Part shown: positions 2,402 through 13,774 of the stretch, piece by piece
Layout: each line of letters begins with the position of its first letter
Numbering within the stretch: position 1 is the stretch's first letter
Origin: Elusimicrobiota bacterium
GTDB lineage: Bacteria > Elusimicrobiota > Elusimicrobia > FEN-1173
Direction: 5' to 3'
Assembly (NCBI GenBank): GCA_052388135.1
Contig: JBQTIM010000184.1
Span: 1 to 18,061 of the forward strand
Length of the DNA: 18,061 nucleotides
Program-made: the position numbers and the translations under genes
The notes under the pieces: generated by a model
What the model saw: the letters and a program-made list of their open reading frames with translations, nothing else
Databases searched by the model: none
What the model was told of the DNA's origin: nothing

Positions 2402-4446
2402 AAAAGACGCCGCGTCGGAGAGCCTGGAAACTTTTCGTCCTGGCCGCCGCCCTCGCCTCGCCGGGCTCGGCCCGGGCCGACGGCAAGGCCCTCCTTCAGC
2501 AGGCCCGCCGGCATTACTTCAAGGGGGATCTGGAGCGGGCGGCGGAAGTTTACACGCAAGTTCCCGAAGGCGATGTCTTCCATCCGGAGGCGGTGCTCAG
2601 CCGGGCCGTGACTCTCAACCATTTGGGGAAACCCGAGGAAGCCCTGCGGGAATGGGTACGCTGCGAACGCCTCCTGCCCAAATCCCATTTCGTGCGCCGC
2701 CAGCTGGGTTGGACGTATTTTTCCCTCGAATCCTACGAAACCGCCGTCTATTGGTTCCAGAGAGCGCTCGACGGCGATCCGGATTCCTGGGAAGCCCTCC
2801 TGGGCCTGGGGTGGTCCTACGCCCGGCAAAACCAGTACGACCGCGCCCTGGCCGCTTACCAAAAAAACCTGTCTGAGAATTCCGACTCGGCCATCCTCTA
2901 TTACATGACAGGCCGCCTTTTCGAGCGCATGGGACGCGCGCGCTTGGCCCTGACGGTTTACGGCAAAGCGCTCAGGCAAGATCACGCCATGGCCGAGGCT
3001 CGCATTGCTCGCGACGCCCTGCAGGCCGGGGAAGACCGTCCCCTGCCGCTTTACCGGCGGCTCCTGCGCATGGTGCCCGGCAGCGGCCTGGTGCTCCGCA
3101 CCATCCGCCAGCTCGCCCCGCGGTCCGACTATCCCACCGTGCCGCCGGCCGAAGCCGTGCGGGAGCTCCCCGCCCTGGAACTGGCGCCGCCGCGGGCGCC
3201 TGCGGCCACGTTTTCCCGGGCGCGCAAGGCCCAGGTCCGGGTGGGTCTGGGGTTGGACGATCTCGGCCGTCCTCTGCCTTTGCGGGAGATAACCTTCACG
3301 TGCCGCTCGGAGTTCGACGTGGACGGCGGAGGGAAAGCGGCGCCCCTCCACGGCGCCGCGGGCGACGTTTGGAATGTGCGCTCGTCCGGGGAAGGCGTTT
3401 TGACGGTGGCGGGTCCTGGGAATATACGCCGCTCCGGCCTGAGCTCCGTCACCATCGACCCGCGCCGGGATGGAACCTTCGTCATCGAAAACCTAGCGGG
3501 ACCGGCCGGCGAGCGGCGGGGCGGAGAATACAAAGGCCGCATGGAGATTTACGCCGGAGCGCGAGGCCTGCGCCTGGTCAACGTGGTGCCCATCGAGGAT
3601 TACCTGGCTTCCGTCGTCCCCTCGGAAATGATTCCCTCCTGGCCCCTGGAAGCGTTCAAGGCCCAGGCGGTTCTATCGCGCTCGCTGGTGGCCCTGGGCG
3701 ATTTCCACCGGGAGGAATACTCCCTCTGCCACGGCCAGCAGTGCCAGGTATAGCGGGGCGGGGGAGCCGAACCGCCCGGCGCGCGCCGGGCCGTCCAGGA
3801 AACCCGCGACGAAGTGCTCGTTTACGGCGACAAAGTGTCCCACGGGGTGTATGCCTCCAACTGCGGCGGGCACACCCAATGGGGGGCCGAACTCGTGAAG
3901 TGGACCAAAGCGCCCTATTGGCGCGGCGTGCCGGACGGCCCGGTGTCGCCGCCGTCATCGCCGGCGAGCGTGGAGCGCTGGGTACGTTCCATCCCCAGGA
4001 CCTTTTGCCGTCCGTCCCGCCGCACCCCGCGGTCGGATTCGCGCTGGGTGCGGCTGGTGTCCGCCGCCTATCTCGAGGAGCGGCTGAGGCAAGGCCATCC
4101 CGACATCGGCCGCGTGCGCCGCCTGGTGGCGCGCCGCCGCTCCCGTTCCGGCCACGTGAATTCCTTGGAGATTGTGGGCTCCCGCGGCTCCGTGGTGGTG
4201 GACCGCGAACACAAAATTCGCAACCTGCTGGCGCCCGGGAGCCTGCGCAGCACCCTCTTCACGGTTCAGACGGTGCACGAGGCGGGGCGCCCCGCGCTTT
4301 TCGTGGTCTGGGGCGGCGGCTGGGGCCACGGCGTGGGCCTCTGCCAGGCCGGAGCCGCCACTCTGGCCGCCGAACAGCGCAGCTACAAAGACATCCTCAA
4401 ACACTACTTCCCCGCCTGCCGCCTGGCCAAACTGCGGCAAAACTGA
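2398..4446 (+). pseudogene. Secreted TPR-repeat plus SpoIID/LytB-domain protein (amidase-enhancer family), interrupted by a single in-frame TAG at 3751-3753
   Basis: The TTG start at 2398 overlaps the midA stop (TTGA). A signal peptide (KKTPRRRAWKLFVLAAALASPGSARA) is followed by TPR-like repeats. The SpoIID domain (YKGRMEIYAG, VPIEDYLASVVPSEMIPSWPLEAFKAQAVLSRS) runs to CHGQQCQV, stops at TAG, and resumes in the same frame (ETRDEVLVYGDKVSHGVYASNCGGHTQ ... GGGWGHGVGLCQAGA ... YKDILKHYFP) as far as TGA at 4446. Segments are 2398..3753 and 3814..4446. Confidence 0.75.
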
Positions 4447-4551
4447 CCCGCGAATTAAATCACCGGGCCCGTGTCTTTAAGGTCTTGGTATTGCCGGCTG
4501 GGCCGGGAGGAAAGGATTTACCTGGGGAAGGAAATGATCGAGGACGGAGAC

Positions 4552-5337
4552 TCAAAAATTAAACGGTTCTAACGCTTGAATTCCGGAAAAACCACCCTCC
4601 GTAAATTCAACAATCGTCGTCGGTTGATTCGGAACTGTTTCTGGTTGACAACGTCCCCTAGCCCCCGACAGAAAATTGACGATGACGCCCGCAATCGTTG
4701 CCAGCAGAGTTAAGACCATGATTGCTAGCGTGAACATCTCTTTTCTATTCGGGCCTTGTGGCTCATCCAACGACACCGAAACATAAGGGAAGAGTTTCTG
4801 TTTTAGATTCATGTAGCTCGCTGCCCACAGCACGACCCCCGTTATGGCTATCGTGCTGGCCAGCAAGTACATCCCTTGCGCGGCGGCGAATGGCACTCCG
4901 ACGGCCGCAAGGCCAATTCCAATTCCCCCAATGGCCGGCATAGCCTTGCCGAGGCGCCAGTGCCAAGGTTTGTGGTTCTCCAAGAAGCGGCCAATGTGCT
5001 TCTCGAGCTTCAAGAACGTCCCTTCGTCAGTGGCGTGGGGCTGCCAGGACACGTTGTTGTGATTAAAATTTAAGGAAACGCCAGCATCGATTTCCTGATT
5101 CGCAGTCCAGCGCAGAGCACGAACCGATAAATGGTCTGTCTGGAGATCTGGAAGTTTGGCAGCGAGATCGTCGACCGTTTCCGCCTGGACTGTTCGCCGT
5201 TCATCGCGCACAGCGAACTCTAGGTGGACGTCACCTCCATCAAGCGCCCTTTTCAAAGCATCCTGGAGTTCATTCAGGCCACGTCGGGTGAGCCGCGTTG
5301 GAGGGCCGTCGTTCAGGCTGCGAAATTCTTCTGTCAT
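4552..5337 (-). CDS. Hypothetical membrane protein of the low-GC island: cytoplasmic N-domain of about 145 aa followed by 3 predicted TM helices
   Basis: The ORF lies in a region of about 48-50% GC inside a 68-70% GC background. I start it at the internal ATG at 5337, which has an AAAGGCGGA RBS-like sequence upstream; the ORF track extends to 5508. Hydrophobic helices are AIGGIGIGLAAVGVPFAAA, YLLASTIAITGVVLWAASY and FTLAIMVLTLLATIAGVIVNFL. The N-domain has no recognisable family. Confidence 0.5.
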   Translation of the reverse strand: MTEEFRSLNDGPPTRLTRRGLNELQDALKRALDGGDVHLEFAVRDERRTVQAETVDDLAAKLPDLQTDHLSVRALRWTANQEIDAGVSLNFNHNNVSWQPHATDEGTFLKLEKHIGRFLENHKPWHWRLGKAMPAIGGIGIGLAAVGVPFAAAQGMYLLASTIAITGVVLWAASYMNLKQKLFPYVSVSLDEPQGPNRKEMFTLAIMVLTLLATIAGVIVNFLSGARGRCQPETVPNQPTTIVEFTEGGFSGIQALEPFNF

Positions 5338-5486
5338 GGAGTTCCGCCTTTCTGTGCTCGCGCAGTCGTGGCGAAGCTTGTCCGCGAACTTAGACCTATT
5401 GCCCTGATGGGAGGCGGTAGCTAACGAATAAGCCCAGCCACGCGGCTTGGTGTGCCGCGTCGGCTGGAGCGAATTGTTATGCCGCA

Positions 5487-5756
5487 CTATCGAAGCGTTT
5501 CCTCGCATATCTGCAGGTCGAGTTCGTCCGGTGGTTTACAATTTTTCCCAATTTCATAGTCCCAGCGCGCGTCAGGGGCGGCCACTTTGGTGTGTTGCTT
5601 ATTAATCCATCGGCGAGCCTCGTCAGTCGATGAAAAAATAGGGCCTCTAGTGAAAATCGTGAGGTCGTCCGCATCAGGATAGTAAACGGGTTGAAACGTG
5701 TCTGGTTTCAAGCAGGCCGTAATGAGCATTGCCACAACTAAGAGACCCGGTTTCAT
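5487..5756 (-). CDS. Small lipoprotein (89 aa) of the low-GC island
   Basis: The signal peptide ends in a lipobox (MKPGLLVVAMLITAC). A GAGGA RBS lies 3-4 nt upstream of the ATG. The GC content matches the neighbouring membrane protein gene. Confidence 0.5.
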   Translation of the reverse strand: MKPGLLVVAMLITACLKPDTFQPVYYPDADDLTIFTRGPIFSSTDEARRWINKQHTKVAAPDARWDYEIGKNCKPPDELDLQICEETLR

Positions 5757-5778
5757 TTGTCCTCATGCGCTCCGCTGA

Positions 5779-5826
5779 GCTTGTATTCGACCCCCCAAAT
5801 GGGGTAGCATTTCGCCTGATACAAGC
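5779..5826. repeat. Nested palindromes (GCTTGTAT ... ATACAAGC, enclosing CCCC-AAAT-GGGG) in the divergent region between the lipoprotein gene and radC
   Basis: Perfect 8-bp inverted arms are separated by 32 nt, with an inner 4-5 bp palindrome. The element sits at the right edge of the low-GC island, just upstream of an AT-rich stretch. Confidence 0.4.
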
Positions 5827-5888
5827 GAAGTTATCTATTTAGTCATTTAATGTCAACGGTTTTGTGGGCGGAGGGCGAGAGGCGTAAT

Positions 5889-6566
5889 ATGACGGCTCGG
5901 GCGGCTTTTAAGTCTTTGCATGCGGTGGACAGGCCTCGGGAGCGGTTGGCTCGACAGGGGGCCAAGGCTTTGAAGGATGAGGAGCTTTTGGCCATCCTTC
6001 TGCGCACGGGCTATAAGAACATGGACGTGCTGGCTTTGTCGCGGGAGTTGCTGAAGCTTTATCCGGGGCGGACGCTTTACGAGCTGGCTTTTCCGGAGCT
6101 TAAAAAGATCAAAGGGGTGGGGGCTTCGCGGGCGTCGGCGCTTCAGGCGGCTTGGGAGCTGGCGCGGCGCTATTTCGAGTCGCCGGACCGCCTGCCGGTT
6201 TTGCAGTCGCCCCGGGACGTTTGCGCGCAGATCGGCGAGATCCGCGCCCAGAGGAAAGAGCACTTCGTGGTCCTTTATTTGAACACCCGCAACCAGTTGG
6301 TGCACAAGGAGGCGGTTTCCGTGGGCACGCTCAACGCGAGCTTGGTTCATCCCCGGGAGGTCTTTGAACCGGCCCTGCGCCACTCGGCGGCGGGGGTGAT
6401 TTTGGCCCACAACCATCCGTCGGGGGATCCGTCGCCGTCGGAGGAGGACCGGGAGCTGACGCGGCGGTTGGCGGAGGCGGGGCGTCTGCTGGGCATAGAC
6501 GTGCTGGACCACGTGGTGGTGGCGGACGGGCGGCATTACAGCTTTCAGGAGAACGGGGCTTTGTGA
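5889..6566 (+). CDS. radC: RadC-like JAB/MPN domain protein (UPF0758)
   Basis: The N-terminal region matches RadC ([27 protein letters not shown]), and the JAB motif is present ([21 protein letters not shown]). I prefer the ATG at 5889, which has a GGAGGGCGAGAGG RBS, over the ATG at 5850. Confidence 0.85.
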
Positions 6567-9517: not shown

Positions 9518-9778
9518 CTAGGGCTTGGGGGAAGGCGGGGGAAGTTCTTTGGAGCCCGCGGCCGGAACGGGCTCCTTCGGGGCGGACGGCCCGCCGGCCG
9601 CTTCGCCGCAGGCGGCCCGCGCTTCTTTAAGCTCGGCCTTCAGGCGGTCCACCAGGTAGCCGCCCAGGGCCATGGACGCGAAGGCCGCCAGCCACCCCGA
9701 CCAAAGAGTGATGTGGCGCAAGACGCGGATGTGCGCCTTGCGTTTCTCCTCGCGCTCGGCTTCCGAAAGCTCAGACAT
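9518..9778 (-). CDS. Small single-pass membrane protein (86 aa) with a Pro/Ala-rich tail, overlapping the ychF 3' end by 8 nt
   Basis: The ATG overlaps the ychF stop. One TM helix is present (ITLWSGWLAAFASMALGGYLV). No homology is recognised. Confidence 0.4.
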   Translation of the reverse strand: MSELSEAEREEKRKAHIRVLRHITLWSGWLAAFASMALGGYLVDRLKAELKEARAACGEAAGGPSAPKEPVPAAGSKELPPPSPKP

Positions 9779-11097: not shown

Positions 11098-11904
11098 CTA
11101 GCCTTGGAGTTTCAACTCAACGAAGGCGGTGGGGTCGAGGACGCGGAAGGTGAAGGATTCGGAGAGATAGAGGCGGACGGTTTTGCTGTCGTGGGTTTCG
11201 TAGCCGAGGGAGAGGTCCTGGCCCAGGGTGAGCTCCAGGTCGCCGCCGCGGGTGGAGACGAGGAATCCTCCTTCTATGAACGGGCTCAAGGCGATGGGGC
11301 CGCCCAGGAGTTGTTCGACCTGCTTGCGGGGCGGGTAGGCGGCGTAGCTCCCCTGCAGGGCCTGGAAAGGGCGCGGGCCGAGGACCAGGGCGTAGGGGCC
11401 TTCCACCTGCTTGTCTTTGAGGACCAGCATGGCGCGGACCACGGTGTCGGGAAACTTGGCGGCGTCGGCGGCCAGGGGGAGAGGGGCGTTTTCGCCGCCG
11501 CGGGCCAGGCCCGCGATGCCGCCGGGCTCGAAGCCGTCGTAAACGGCTTTCTCCTCGAAACCGGCGATGCGGCGGGCGGCGGCGTCCAGGGGAGCGAAAT
11601 CCAAATCGCGGGCGCCGCGCTCCACGTCGTCGAAAGACCACACGTTCAGCTCGAAGGAAGCCCGCGCCTCCACCAGAGGCAAAACGCGGTGGATGCCGTA
11701 GCACATCTTGTCTTCCGCCGGGCCGCAGGGGGCGACCGTCAGGCGGCCCAGGCCCACGGCGGCGAAATCCAGGCCTTTGGGCCCGTTGACGTCGGCGATG
11801 GCGCGGGCCGACAAATTGTTCCGGAGGGAGCGCCGCGCCTGGTCCTGCAGGGCGGCCCAGGCTTTGTCGGTGAGAGGGGCCAGGGATCGCTTTAAAATGT
11901 CCAT
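11098..11904 (-). CDS. Family 1 encapsulin nanocompartment shell protein (Linocin_M18 / HK97 fold)
   Basis: The match to T. maritima-type encapsulin is strong (ILKRSLAPLTDKAW, VSTRGGDLELTLGQDLSLGYETHDSKTVRLYLSESFTFRVLDPTAFVELKL). A perfect AAGGAGG RBS lies 6 nt upstream of the ATG. Confidence 0.9.
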   Translation of the reverse strand: MDILKRSLAPLTDKAWAALQDQARRSLRNNLSARAIADVNGPKGLDFAAVGLGRLTVAPCGPAEDKMCYGIHRVLPLVEARASFELNVWSFDDVERGARDLDFAPLDAAARRIAGFEEKAVYDGFEPGGIAGLARGGENAPLPLAADAAKFPDTVVRAMLVLKDKQVEGPYALVLGPRPFQALQGSYAAYPPRKQVEQLLGGPIALSPFIEGGFLVSTRGGDLELTLGQDLSLGYETHDSKTVRLYLSESFTFRVLDPTAFVELKLQG

Positions 11905-11914
11905 AAGGTCCTCC

Positions 11915-12364
11915 TTATCGTCGGGGAATGAGGGACGAGAGGGCGCGCCGCGCCTCCGGCAGAACCAGCGGCAGGATGAGGATATGCGCCAGCGCCGTGA
12001 GGATGCAATAGACGCACCAGGAGCCGGATTTCCGCATGGTGTTGAAATACCACACGGCGGCCGCTCCCTCCGCCGACGCTTTGCCGGCCAAGGCCAAGGG
12101 GATGAGGGGAAGCATCGCGGCCCGGTTCACGCCGCCGGCGGCCGCGAGAACGACGTTCAAGCTGAGCATGGCCAGGTCCACGGTTCCGTCGGGCACGCCG
12201 TACATATAGGCGGTGTCGGAAGAGTTCACGGCGGCGGAGTCGAAGCGCGGGCCCAGGGGCGGGTCGGCGAGGCCTTTGATCATCCCCGTCTGGAAAAGGG
12301 ACACGTAGGCCATGTTGGCCAGGCCGAAAAGGGACAGGCCGATGATCCAGCGCCGCCGCGCCAT
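11915..12364 (-). CDS. VKOR-like 4-TM membrane protein with a CxxC motif, inserted between the encapsulin cargo and shell genes; an alternative start at 12502 adds 46 aa
   Basis: Four hydrophobic helices are present. WCVYCILTALAHILIL at the start of the last helix matches the VKOR CxxC active-site placement. The loop segment NSSDTAYMYGVPDGTVDLAMLS aligns to the VKOR loop, but the loop Cys pair is replaced. The TAA stop lies 10 nt before the encapsulin ATG, with the encapsulin RBS inside the gene's 3' end. Confidence 0.45.
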   Translation of the reverse strand: MARRRWIIGLSLFGLANMAYVSLFQTGMIKGLADPPLGPRFDSAAVNSSDTAYMYGVPDGTVDLAMLSLNVVLAAAGGVNRAAMLPLIPLALAGKASAEGAAAVWYFNTMRKSGSWCVYCILTALAHILILPLVLPEARRALSSLIPRR

Positions 12365-12534
12365 GTCTCCGCCGGGCCCTTCCCGTATTTGCCGCCGCAG
12401 TTCCTGAGGAGGCAGGCGGCCCAGAAAAGTTTTAGGGGCTGCGGTTTTCACCCGGGGTCCTCCTTCCGGCACGGACGGGACAACCGCGCCGCCGACGGCC
12501 ATAAAACTCCGAAGGGCGTTCGCGGCGCGGCGGG

Positions 12535-12906
12535 TCACGAGGGTCTTTCGGCGCCGCGATTTTTCAAATTCCCCAGGCCCAGGTCGGCGGGCGCGTCCGG
12601 TCCGCCGCCTTTTTCCAAAGATTCTTCGACTTCGGTGATGGGGGCTTCGGTGAACAGATAGTTGCGGAGATTCTCGTCCCACTTCGGGCTGCGGCGGCGC
12701 AGCCACTCCAGCAGCATGCAGGCGTGCTCGATCTCCTCGTCGCGGTGGTGGGAAAGGACGGCTTTCAGCGCCTCGTCGCCGGAAGCGGCCACGCGCTGGT
12801 TGTACCAATCCACCGCCTCCAGCTCTTCCATGAGGCTTTTAACGGCTCGGTGCAGGTCGCGGGCGTCGTCGGGCAGAAGCTCGTAGGGCTCGTGGTACTC
12901 GGACAT
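12535..12906 (-). CDS. Encapsulated ferritin-like protein (EncFtn/Flp cargo) with a C-terminal encapsulin targeting peptide
   Basis: I start it at the internal ATG at 12906, which has a GGAG RBS. The EncFtn core is present (LHRAVKSLMEELEAVDWYNQRV ... HHRDEEIEHACMLLEWLRR). The C-terminal tail DLGLGNLK matches the family-1 targeting motif (L-x-V/I-G-S-L-K-like). Confidence 0.85.
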   Translation of the reverse strand: MSEYHEPYELLPDDARDLHRAVKSLMEELEAVDWYNQRVAASGDEALKAVLSHHRDEEIEHACMLLEWLRRRSPKWDENLRNYLFTEAPITEVEESLEKGGGPDAPADLGLGNLKNRGAERPS

Positions 12907-12993
12907 GGAGTCTCCAGTGAGCCTGAAAGGGATTTTCTCGGCGGGATGTGCGGGGAAGGCCGTCGATTTATTTTCCCATTTCCGGAGGCGGCG

Positions 12994-13022
12994 GTCAACG
13001 ACGGCGGGTGGAATGGTATAAT
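12994..13022 (+). promoter_or_regulatory. Sigma70-type promoter with an extended -10 (TGGTATAAT, about 13014-13022) for the CBS/YHS genes, in the region divergent from the encapsulin operon
   Basis: A perfect TGnTATAAT sits about 105 nt upstream of the CBS ATG. A weak -35 (GTCAAC/TCAACG) lies at 17-nt spacing. The rest of the window is GC-rich, which makes this motif stand out. Confidence 0.45.
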
Positions 13023-13127
13023 GGAAAGGAAGTTCCCCCCGCGCACCGACTCTCTCTCCCGACAACGGGTTCGCCCGACAATCCCGCCCGGCGCTCGCCG
13101 GACGGTCCCGTCCTGGAAGGAGGTTCC

Positions 13128-13574
13128 ATGAAAGCCAGCGATATCATGACCCGTGAGCCGGCCGTGTGCCTGCCGCAGAGCACCCTGCGCGACGCGGCCC
13201 AGATCATGGTGGAGGAAGACTGCGGGGCGGTCCCCGTGGTGGAAAACCGCGATTCCATGCGCCTGGTCGGCATCATCACCGACAGGGACATCGCCTGCCG
13301 CGCCGTGGCCGACGGCGCCCATCCCCTGCAAAAAACGGCCGGCGACTGCATGTCGAGCCCGGTGGTCACCGTGACGCCCGACGCCAGCCTGGAGGAATGC
13401 TGCGAGGCGATGGAGGAAAACCAGATCCGCCGCGTGCCGGTGGTGGACCGCGACGGCGTCTGCGTGGGCGTGGTGACCCAGGCGCACATCGCGCGCCGCG
13501 CGCCCGAATCCGACGCCGCCCGGGTGGTGAGGAACGTGTCCGAGCCCACGCGGGAAGCCTCCCGCGTGGGTTGA
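13128..13574 (+). CDS. CBS-domain pair protein
   Basis: An AAGGAGG RBS lies upstream. Two CBS motifs are present (IMTREPAVCLPQSTLRDAAQIM ... VPVVENRDSMRLVGIITDRDI, and CMSSPVVTVTPDASLEECCEAMEENQIRRVPVVDRDGVCVGVVT). Confidence 0.8.
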   Translation: MKASDIMTREPAVCLPQSTLRDAAQIMVEEDCGAVPVVENRDSMRLVGIITDRDIACRAVADGAHPLQKTAGDCMSSPVVTVTPDASLEECCEAMEENQIRRVPVVDRDGVCVGVVTQAHIARRAPESDAARVVRNVSEPTREASRVG

Positions 13575-13585
13575 AAGGAGGCGTT

Positions 13586-13774
13586 ATGGAGGAAATGAAA
13601 ACCATGGACCCCGTCTGCGGGCGGGAGGTGGCGGTGGACAAGGCCGTCCGCGCCGAGTTCGAGGGGGACGAGTTCCACTTTTGCTCGCCGGAATGCCGGG
13701 AGGTTTTCTTGAGGGAAATGGAGCATTTCCAGGAGGAAGCCCGTTCCCAGCCGGAAATCGGGAACCCGCGCTAG
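13586..13774 (+). CDS. YHS-domain (TRASH-like) metal-binding protein, 62 aa
   Basis: An AAAGGAGG RBS lies upstream. The YHS signature is DPVCGREV ... FEGDEFHFCSPECREVF. The gene starts 12 nt after the CBS gene. Confidence 0.75.
   Translation: MEEMKTMDPVCGREVAVDKAVRAEFEGDEFHFCSPECREVFLREMEHFQEEARSQPEIGNPR

Follow-up and report, generated by a model that had tools for sequence, protein, structure and literature searches.

The window analysed here, 18,061 nt of an Elusimicrobiota bacterium (contig JBQTIM010000184.1), carries on its minus strand an encapsulin operon in which the genes for the encapsulated ferritin (EncFtn) cargo and the shell are separated by a third gene, whose product is a membrane protein assigned to the vitamin K epoxide reductase (VKOR) family. 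The three genes run head to tail, with EncFtn at 12906-12535, the VKOR-family gene at 12451-11915, and the family 1 shell gene at 11904-11098. This cargo-VKOR-shell arrangement is an undescribed variant of a known EncFtn system. We consider it probable that the locus is a standard family 1 EncFtn operon in which a lineage-specific VKOR-family paralogue has been captured between cargo and shell. Two sets of observations carry this reading: the gene order is confined to one narrow lineage, and the inserted gene is damaged in a sister population whose cargo and shell are intact.

Results

Cargo and shell are those of a family 1 EncFtn system

The cargo gene (12535-12906, minus strand) encodes 123 aa and matches both the Pfam family EncFtn-like PF22277 (E-value 1.3e-40) and TIGR04535 (E-value 3e-45; 152.8 bits against a cut-off of 125). 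Its best solved relatives are the EncFtn structures 33bf, 5da5, and 7oe2, and the ferroxidase-centre motifs EELEAVDWY and EExEH (EEIEH here) are kept. Residues 108-115, DLGLGNLK (12562-12585, minus strand), are followed by an 8-residue tail and align to the targeting peptide SLGIGSLKG of the solved EncFtn chain 33bf_A; we take them as the predicted cargo targeting peptide. A related cargo at another locus (L085) has DLGIGALK and a longer tail.

The shell gene (11098-11904, minus strand) encodes 268 aa, which is in the T=1 size class. The protein gives a full-length match to Linocin_M18 (PF04454, E-value 9.3e-75) and scores 262.5 bits against NF041155 encap_f1 (E-value 4e-78; cut-off 100). Its best solved relatives, 8u50, 3dkt, 7odw, and Cfp29, are the T=1 shells of Klebsiella, Thermotoga, Haliangium, and Mycobacterium.

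In these features the locus resembles the known EncFtn systems of Rhodospirillum rubrum (5da5) and Haliangium ochraceum (7oe2/7odw). It shares with them the Linocin_M18/encap_f1 shell, the two cargo motifs, the C-terminal LGxGxLK targeting peptide, and a cargo gene placed 5' of the shell gene on one strand. However, in known EncFtn operons the cargo abuts the shell, and family 1 operons have been described with the cargo immediately 5' of the shell (PMC8346489). Here, the direct adjacency is lost, and cargo and shell are separated by the 537-nt VKOR-family gene plus a spacer of 83 nt.

The inserted gene encodes a VKOR-family protein without loop cysteines

The middle gene (11915-12451, minus strand) encodes a protein of 178 aa with a GTG start and four transmembrane helices. 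A single VKOR domain extends across it, with no fused thioredoxin-like domain; the score against Pfam VKOR PF07884 is 43.2 bits (cut-off 27.5), and profile positions 2-133 of 134 are covered. An alternative start at ATG 12364, giving 149 aa, was dropped in favour of GTG 12451, which has the ribosome-binding site AAGGAGG 7 nt upstream and adds 29 residues bearing the family-conserved motif PQxLRRELQEG. GTG 12451 is almost certainly the true start as read from these signals. An identical database protein is also 178 aa long (annotated 'MAG: vitamin K epoxide reductase family protein [Elusimicrobiota bacterium]'), and homologues are mostly 165-200 aa in length, typically ~177. The possibility of a spurious ORF is ruled out by the 277 database homologues, the best of them beyond the protein's own lineage at ~1e-49, together with the Pfam score above cut-off.

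The protein has a CxxC motif, C146-V-Y-C149 (12005-12016, minus strand), at the start of helix 4. This motif is invariant in 47 family members, and its two residues (WCxYC) are the sole conserved cysteines of the protein. A loop cysteine pair, corresponding to Cys43/Cys51 of the human enzyme and Cys50/Cys56 of the Synechococcus enzyme, is present in none of the 47 family members; in the alignment to 3kp9, serine 72 occupies the position of the Synechococcus loop Cys56. When a profile of 47 homologues was used, the best solved sequence was the Synechococcus VKOR 3kp9, found weakly (E-value 0.016). In that alignment, the family WCGYC falls on the active-site CMYC and the invariant VNSS falls on VLSS, which holds the conserved loop Ser/Thr (human Ser57).

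Structure prediction gave a consistent assignment. An AlphaFold2 model (pLDDT 83.3, pTM 0.77) consists of four long helices with short loop helices. In a Foldseek search against the PDB, the top nine matches were all VKORs, with probabilities of 0.99-1.0 and E-values of just 0.03-0.3; the best, with probability 1.0 and TM-scores of 0.51-0.58, were the human, Synechococcus, and Takifugu enzymes. We conclude that the protein is a VKOR-family member by both sequence and fold, and that it lacks the electron-relay cysteine pair of the characterised enzymes. It shares with Synechococcus VKOR (3kp9/4nv2) the four-helix bundle, the CxxC at the start of helix 4, and the loop serine motif, but the loop cysteines, which in that enzyme relay electrons from a thioredoxin-like partner, are absent. 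Among the 20 window ORFs scanned, none gave a Pfam match to such a thioredoxin-like partner, although one may be encoded elsewhere in the genome. A review of the VKOR family describes Cys43, Cys51, Ser57, Cys132, and Cys135 as fully conserved, sequences without the conserved residues having been culled (PMC4555120). Thus, a subfamily without loop cysteines falls outside the characterised set.

Nine of the N-terminal 35 residues are Arg or Lys, and the large loop is acidic. This charge distribution, together with the VKOR fold, would place the protein in the inner membrane with both termini in the cytoplasm and with the large loop and the CxxC in the periplasm. From the periplasm, the CxxC would have no evident way to reach the lumen of a shell that lies in the cytosol, and given this topology, a direct redox link to that lumen is hard to picture. 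The C-terminal tail, ALSSLIPRR, was considered as a targeting peptide and rejected, since its leucine spacing is unlike that of L-x-I-G-S-L and the tail motif is common to the whole family.

A first-pass annotation of the window had anticipated much of this. It had placed an EncFtn cargo, a membrane protein, and a shell in that order on the minus strand, had named DLGLGNLK as the targeting peptide, and had described the membrane protein as VKOR-like, having a CxxC where helix 4 begins but no loop cysteine pair, with a stop codon 10 nt short of the shell ATG and a 3' end that contains the ribosome-binding site of the shell. The profile matches, alignments, and coordinates reported here and below agree with each of these points, and the homologues settle its worry that the ORF might be an intergenic spacer in disguise. 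Its length of about 150 aa for the membrane protein did not stand.

The cargo-VKOR-shell order is confined to one narrow lineage

A genome scan with the VKOR family alignment yielded 76 loci (L001-L076), mostly from Acidobacteriota, with some from Armatimonadota, Nitrospira, Chloroflexota, and others. When 6 kb around each VKOR-subfamily gene was searched, an encapsulin shell was found at none of the 76 loci. One of them showed a weak EncFtn-like match 5.6 kb off.

The relatives of the shell gave the same answer. A metagenome scan with the shell protein produced one locus (L079, canonical order), and the other shell relatives were looked up one by one. Beyond the window's own lineage, the nearest shells are 69% (L085), 63% (L086), 60% (L080-82), 60% (L083-84), 58% (each of L087, L088, and L089), and 45% (L079) identical to the window shell. 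For all eight of these outside relatives, the cargo gene abuts or overlaps the shell gene, and no VKOR gene is present in the cargo-shell operon.

Elsewhere, the three-gene order was seen only in two metagenome contigs, L077 and L078, in which the shell is 97% identical and the flanking DNA ~95% identical to the window. This level of DNA identity places both contigs in the same narrow lineage as the window. Across the 76 VKOR loci and eight shell relatives, therefore, we did not find recurrent co-occurrence of VKOR and shell in diverged genomes. None of the papers searched names 'encapsulin' together with 'VKOR' or 'vitamin K epoxide reductase'. Among the rows listed in the neighbourhood tables of Andreas and Giessen, PF07884 occurs in at least two cases, both at position -10 of DyP systems.

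These results uphold two further statements of the first-pass annotation, namely that cargo then shell with nothing between them is the norm, as seen in 8/8 relatives and in PMC8346489, and that the present arrangement is not recognisable from described systems. They do not bear out its central proposal of a membrane-associated or quinone/thiol-linked nanocompartment: the shell is missing from all 76 VKOR loci, the eight relatives have two-gene operons, and helix 4 is largely deleted in the sister contigs, as described below. The same three-gene order, which it had suggested looking for in related genomes, shows essentially no synteny beyond the ~95%-identical contigs, an outcome that it had itself named as one that would refute its proposal.

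The inserted gene is less constrained than its neighbours and is damaged in the sister population

Comparison of the window with L077 gave a dN/dS of 0.27 for the VKOR-like gene (16 non-synonymous and 20 synonymous changes), ~2-3-fold the values for EncFtn (0.12) and the shell (0.09); for YchF, dN/dS was 0.03. The VKOR allele of L077 and L078 carries an in-frame deletion of 45 nt, which removes 15 residues of helix 4 just after the CxxC. The hydropathy maximum of this helix (19-residue Kyte-Doolittle window) is 2.45 in the window versus 0.87 in the sister allele. In addition, the sister allele has the substitutions Y135D and Y148H at tyrosines that are invariant in 45 other family members. Beside this damaged copy, the cargo and shell genes of L077/L078 are intact, indicating that the encapsulin system is independent of the VKOR gene.

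The window copy is intact but is itself a clear outlier of its family. Of the 88 columns with at least 90% conservation, it is off consensus at 21, compared to a family median of 1, and its terminal branch is 0.26 versus a median of 0.079. At 45 of the 51 positions that never vary in the family it retains the usual residue, with both the CxxC and VNSS kept. Because 20 of the 21 departures from consensus are also found in the sister allele, most of the divergence is older than the split between the window and its sister. The junction is variable as well, given a 37-nt indel: the cargo-VKOR spacer is 37 nt shorter in the sister contigs (window 12452-12534 compared to L077 1985-2031), where the flanking genes are ~95% identical.

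The GC and GC3 of the VKOR gene equal those of the neighbouring genes, and neither mobile-element nor tRNA genes lie near it; recent horizontal transfer is thus unsupported. In a neighbour-joining tree constructed to place the donor lineage, the window VKOR formed a long branch joined near the base.

Transcription and translation signals of the operon

A promoter-like site, TTGACC and GAAAAT separated by 17 nt with TG ahead of the second hexamer, lies 5' of EncFtn (12970-12998, minus strand). The consensus scan that detected it gave 2 sites versus 0.2 expected, as matches to a pattern and not as evidence of function. No terminator-like (intrinsic) site was found between the three genes, including in the 83-nt spacer between the cargo stop and the VKOR start (12452-12534, minus strand), which holds the AAGGAGG of the VKOR gene at 12465-12459. 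With a promoter-like site 5' of EncFtn and no terminator-like site between the genes, co-transcription is plausible, and a three-gene transcript likely begins at 12970-12998.

The ribosome-binding site of the shell, AAGGAGG (11910-11916, minus strand), overlaps the VKOR stop TAA (11917-11915), and 10 nt lie between this stop and the shell ATG at 11904. A string of 10 nt, AAGGAGGACC, is found 5' of both the VKOR start and the shell start. This repeat could have been left behind by the insertion event, or it could merely reflect two similar ribosome-binding sites.

A dehydrogenase is the commonest neighbour of the VKOR subfamily

As a group, the VKOR subfamily is ~177 aa in length and has the invariant CxxC, an invariant loop motif, LPDPP..FDS.KVNSSDTAY.LGVPDG, and no loop cysteines. 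Outside the present lineage its genes occur in settings unrelated to encapsulins. Their commonest neighbour, adjacent in 23 of the 76 loci, encodes a membrane-anchored short-chain dehydrogenase of ~355 aa whose C terminus forms a hydrophobic helix; the pair at 4065-5129 and 5629-6108 of L012 is an example. Neighbours that resemble fatty-acid hydroxylases were noted in 19 loci by motif, not checked against Pfam. The VKOR-subfamily protein and the dehydrogenase may act together as a redox pair on quinones or lipids.

The window also contains a short-chain dehydrogenase gene (14826-13945, minus strand), 1.5 kb 5' of the VKOR gene and on the same strand, which recalls the dehydrogenase-VKOR pairing of other phyla. 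Its product is 30-33% identical to the VKOR-linked dehydrogenases, for which the cluster median is 38%, and it does not have their C-terminal helix.

Neighbouring genes and related encapsulin loci

Divergent from EncFtn in the window are a gene for a CBS-domain protein (12948-13574, plus strand) and a small gene for a YHS (metal-binding) protein (~13600-13774, plus strand). The CBS/YHS pair is also present in L077 (744-1390), and CBS or YHS genes lie near the EncFtn-shell operons of L087 (714-1163) and L080 (6477-6758). Their presence near EncFtn operons could reflect a regulatory or metal-handling association.

The sister contigs differ from the window in two other ways. The sister EncFtn (L077 1613-1984) has arginine in place of glycine at residue 112, within the targeting peptide, giving DLGLRNLK versus DLGLGNLK; this position is usually glycine among family 1 targeting peptides. 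Furthermore, the sister contigs have a MazE-PIN toxin-antitoxin pair (~730 bp) just 3' of YchF (L077 4954-5596), which the window lacks (~9771-9778). This difference is an insertion or deletion between near-identical genomes.

In L080/L081 (4121-6430; shell 60% identical), the EncFtn and shell genes are followed by two small ORFs and then by FGE-sulfatase/DinB_2 and Methyltransf_33 genes, which resemble the ergothioneine genes EgtB and EgtD. On the 5' side of this operon are genes for ChaB, a glycosyltransferase, Pterin_4a, and dodecin. The EncFtn-shell genes of L083 (3809-5964) and L088 (2157-4565) are convergent with hydrogenase maturation genes, namely a hypE-like AIRS-domain gene, hypD, and hypC.

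Elsewhere in the window, the GC content falls to 0.54-0.58 at 4500-6500, compared to ~0.67 in the remainder. This region, which could be a foreign segment, holds a RadC-like JAB gene (5850-6566) and, on the minus strand at 4552-5508, a 318-aa ORF that matches nothing in Pfam.

Discussion

In the explanation that we favour, one narrow lineage of Elusimicrobiota acquired a VKOR-family paralogue that came to lie between cargo and shell. All three genes would probably be transcribed from the promoter-like site 5' of EncFtn, and for translation the shell would rely on a strong ribosome-binding site of its own, lying over the VKOR stop. EncFtn decamers, loaded by means of the C-terminal peptide, would oxidise Fe(II), and the shell would store the mineral. 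Most likely, the operon works like any EncFtn encapsulin and the VKOR gene is a co-transcribed passenger.

Several observations weigh against this explanation. None of the three contigs has a broken VKOR reading frame, even the deletion being in frame, and a dN/dS well under 1 points to purifying selection over much of the gene's history in the lineage. Its fast evolution could mean a new function and not decay. The insertion is precise and tightly spaced: the shell ATG follows after only 10 nt, and the ribosome-binding site that serves it lies over the VKOR stop. Since GC and GC3 match those of the neighbouring genes, the capture was not very recent. There are no VKOR relatives of 57-83% identity in the databases that would help to place the donor and the timing. 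Finally, only one lineage was sampled, so the absence of the arrangement elsewhere leaves room for a function specific to that lineage. Given the purifying selection and the kept frame, we leave three rival explanations standing, none with more than a slight probability.

In the first of these, the VKOR-like protein is a true accessory, which tethers the encapsulin to the inner membrane or links the quinone pool to the oxidation or release of iron. Its position within the operon, close against the shell gene, would suit such a role, as would the recurrence of the same order with an unbroken frame in three contigs from different samples, the dN/dS below 1, and the many changes at family-conserved sites, which could signal a new function. 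There is also a precedent, in that accessory membrane proteins with a DUF1345 domain are known in some (Streptomyces) DyP encapsulin operons (PMC8346489). These resemble the present case in having a membrane-protein gene, of unknown role, in or beside a family 1 operon. However, DUF1345 proteins are common across many operons of one type, whereas the VKOR gene is seen in one lineage and is degraded in a sister population. Neither the 76 VKOR loci nor the eight shell relatives show any co-occurrence beyond the lineage of ~95% DNA identity, and the sister copy has lost helix 4 and two invariant tyrosines while cargo and shell are strongly constrained. Moreover, the CxxC and the conserved loop are probably periplasmic, on the opposite side of the membrane from the cytosol in which family 1 shells assemble. 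The motifs of the N- and C-terminal tails, which would face the cytoplasm, are common to a whole family that is otherwise unlinked to encapsulins, and the tail ALSSLIPRR does not have the L-x-I-G-S-L targeting spacing. Taken together, an accessory role is unlikely.

The second holds that the protein is an enzyme that keeps an ancestral, encapsulin-independent role in quinone- or lipid-linked membrane redox chemistry and merely shares the promoter, perhaps by way of a common oxidative or metal stress response. The 45 invariant residues that are kept, the CxxC and the VNSS serine motif among them, and the detectable purifying selection are consistent with this, and dehydrogenases, the commonest neighbours of the family, are represented by the gene 1.5 kb 5' on the same strand. 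Nevertheless, that dehydrogenase has low identity to the VKOR-linked ones and no C-terminal helix, the window VKOR copy is the strongest outlier of its family, and the sister copy is degraded. We regard a retained ancestral role as improbable.

In the third, the gene is kept mainly because it affects expression, and not for the activity of its product. Its translation could tune the ratio of cargo to shell, or co-translational insertion could draw the mRNA to the membrane, with shell subunits then being made close by. In its favour, the frame persists despite the deletion in helix 4, the ribosome-binding site of the shell lies over the VKOR stop, and AAGGAGGACC stands ahead of both the VKOR and the shell start. 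However, selection for a pure spacer predicts a dN/dS near 1, not the 0.27 observed, and with a strong ribosome-binding site of its own the shell has no need of coupling. Relatives manage without a spacer gene, and the idea rests on no direct evidence. We therefore give it little credence. We would be surprised, too, if the VKOR-like protein proved to be newly recruited as a membrane partner of the encapsulin, through its tails, co-translational insertion of the mRNA, or a link to the quinone pool, with the burst of substitutions marking the change, although this would then be the first family 1 encapsulin coupled to the membrane or to quinone redox chemistry and would change the view of how an iron-store compartment is supplied and localised.

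If the VKOR gene is indeed a captured passenger, the locus illustrates that gene order within an operon can mislead the prediction of function, as a tightly packed and apparently co-transcribed gene can be a decaying, lineage-specific passenger. The VKOR subfamily, with its 277 database matches, mostly in Acidobacteriota, is without the supposedly universal loop cysteines; it appears to be uncharacterised and merits a study of its own. With its dehydrogenase neighbour, this subfamily may be a more interesting lead than the insertion into the encapsulin operon.

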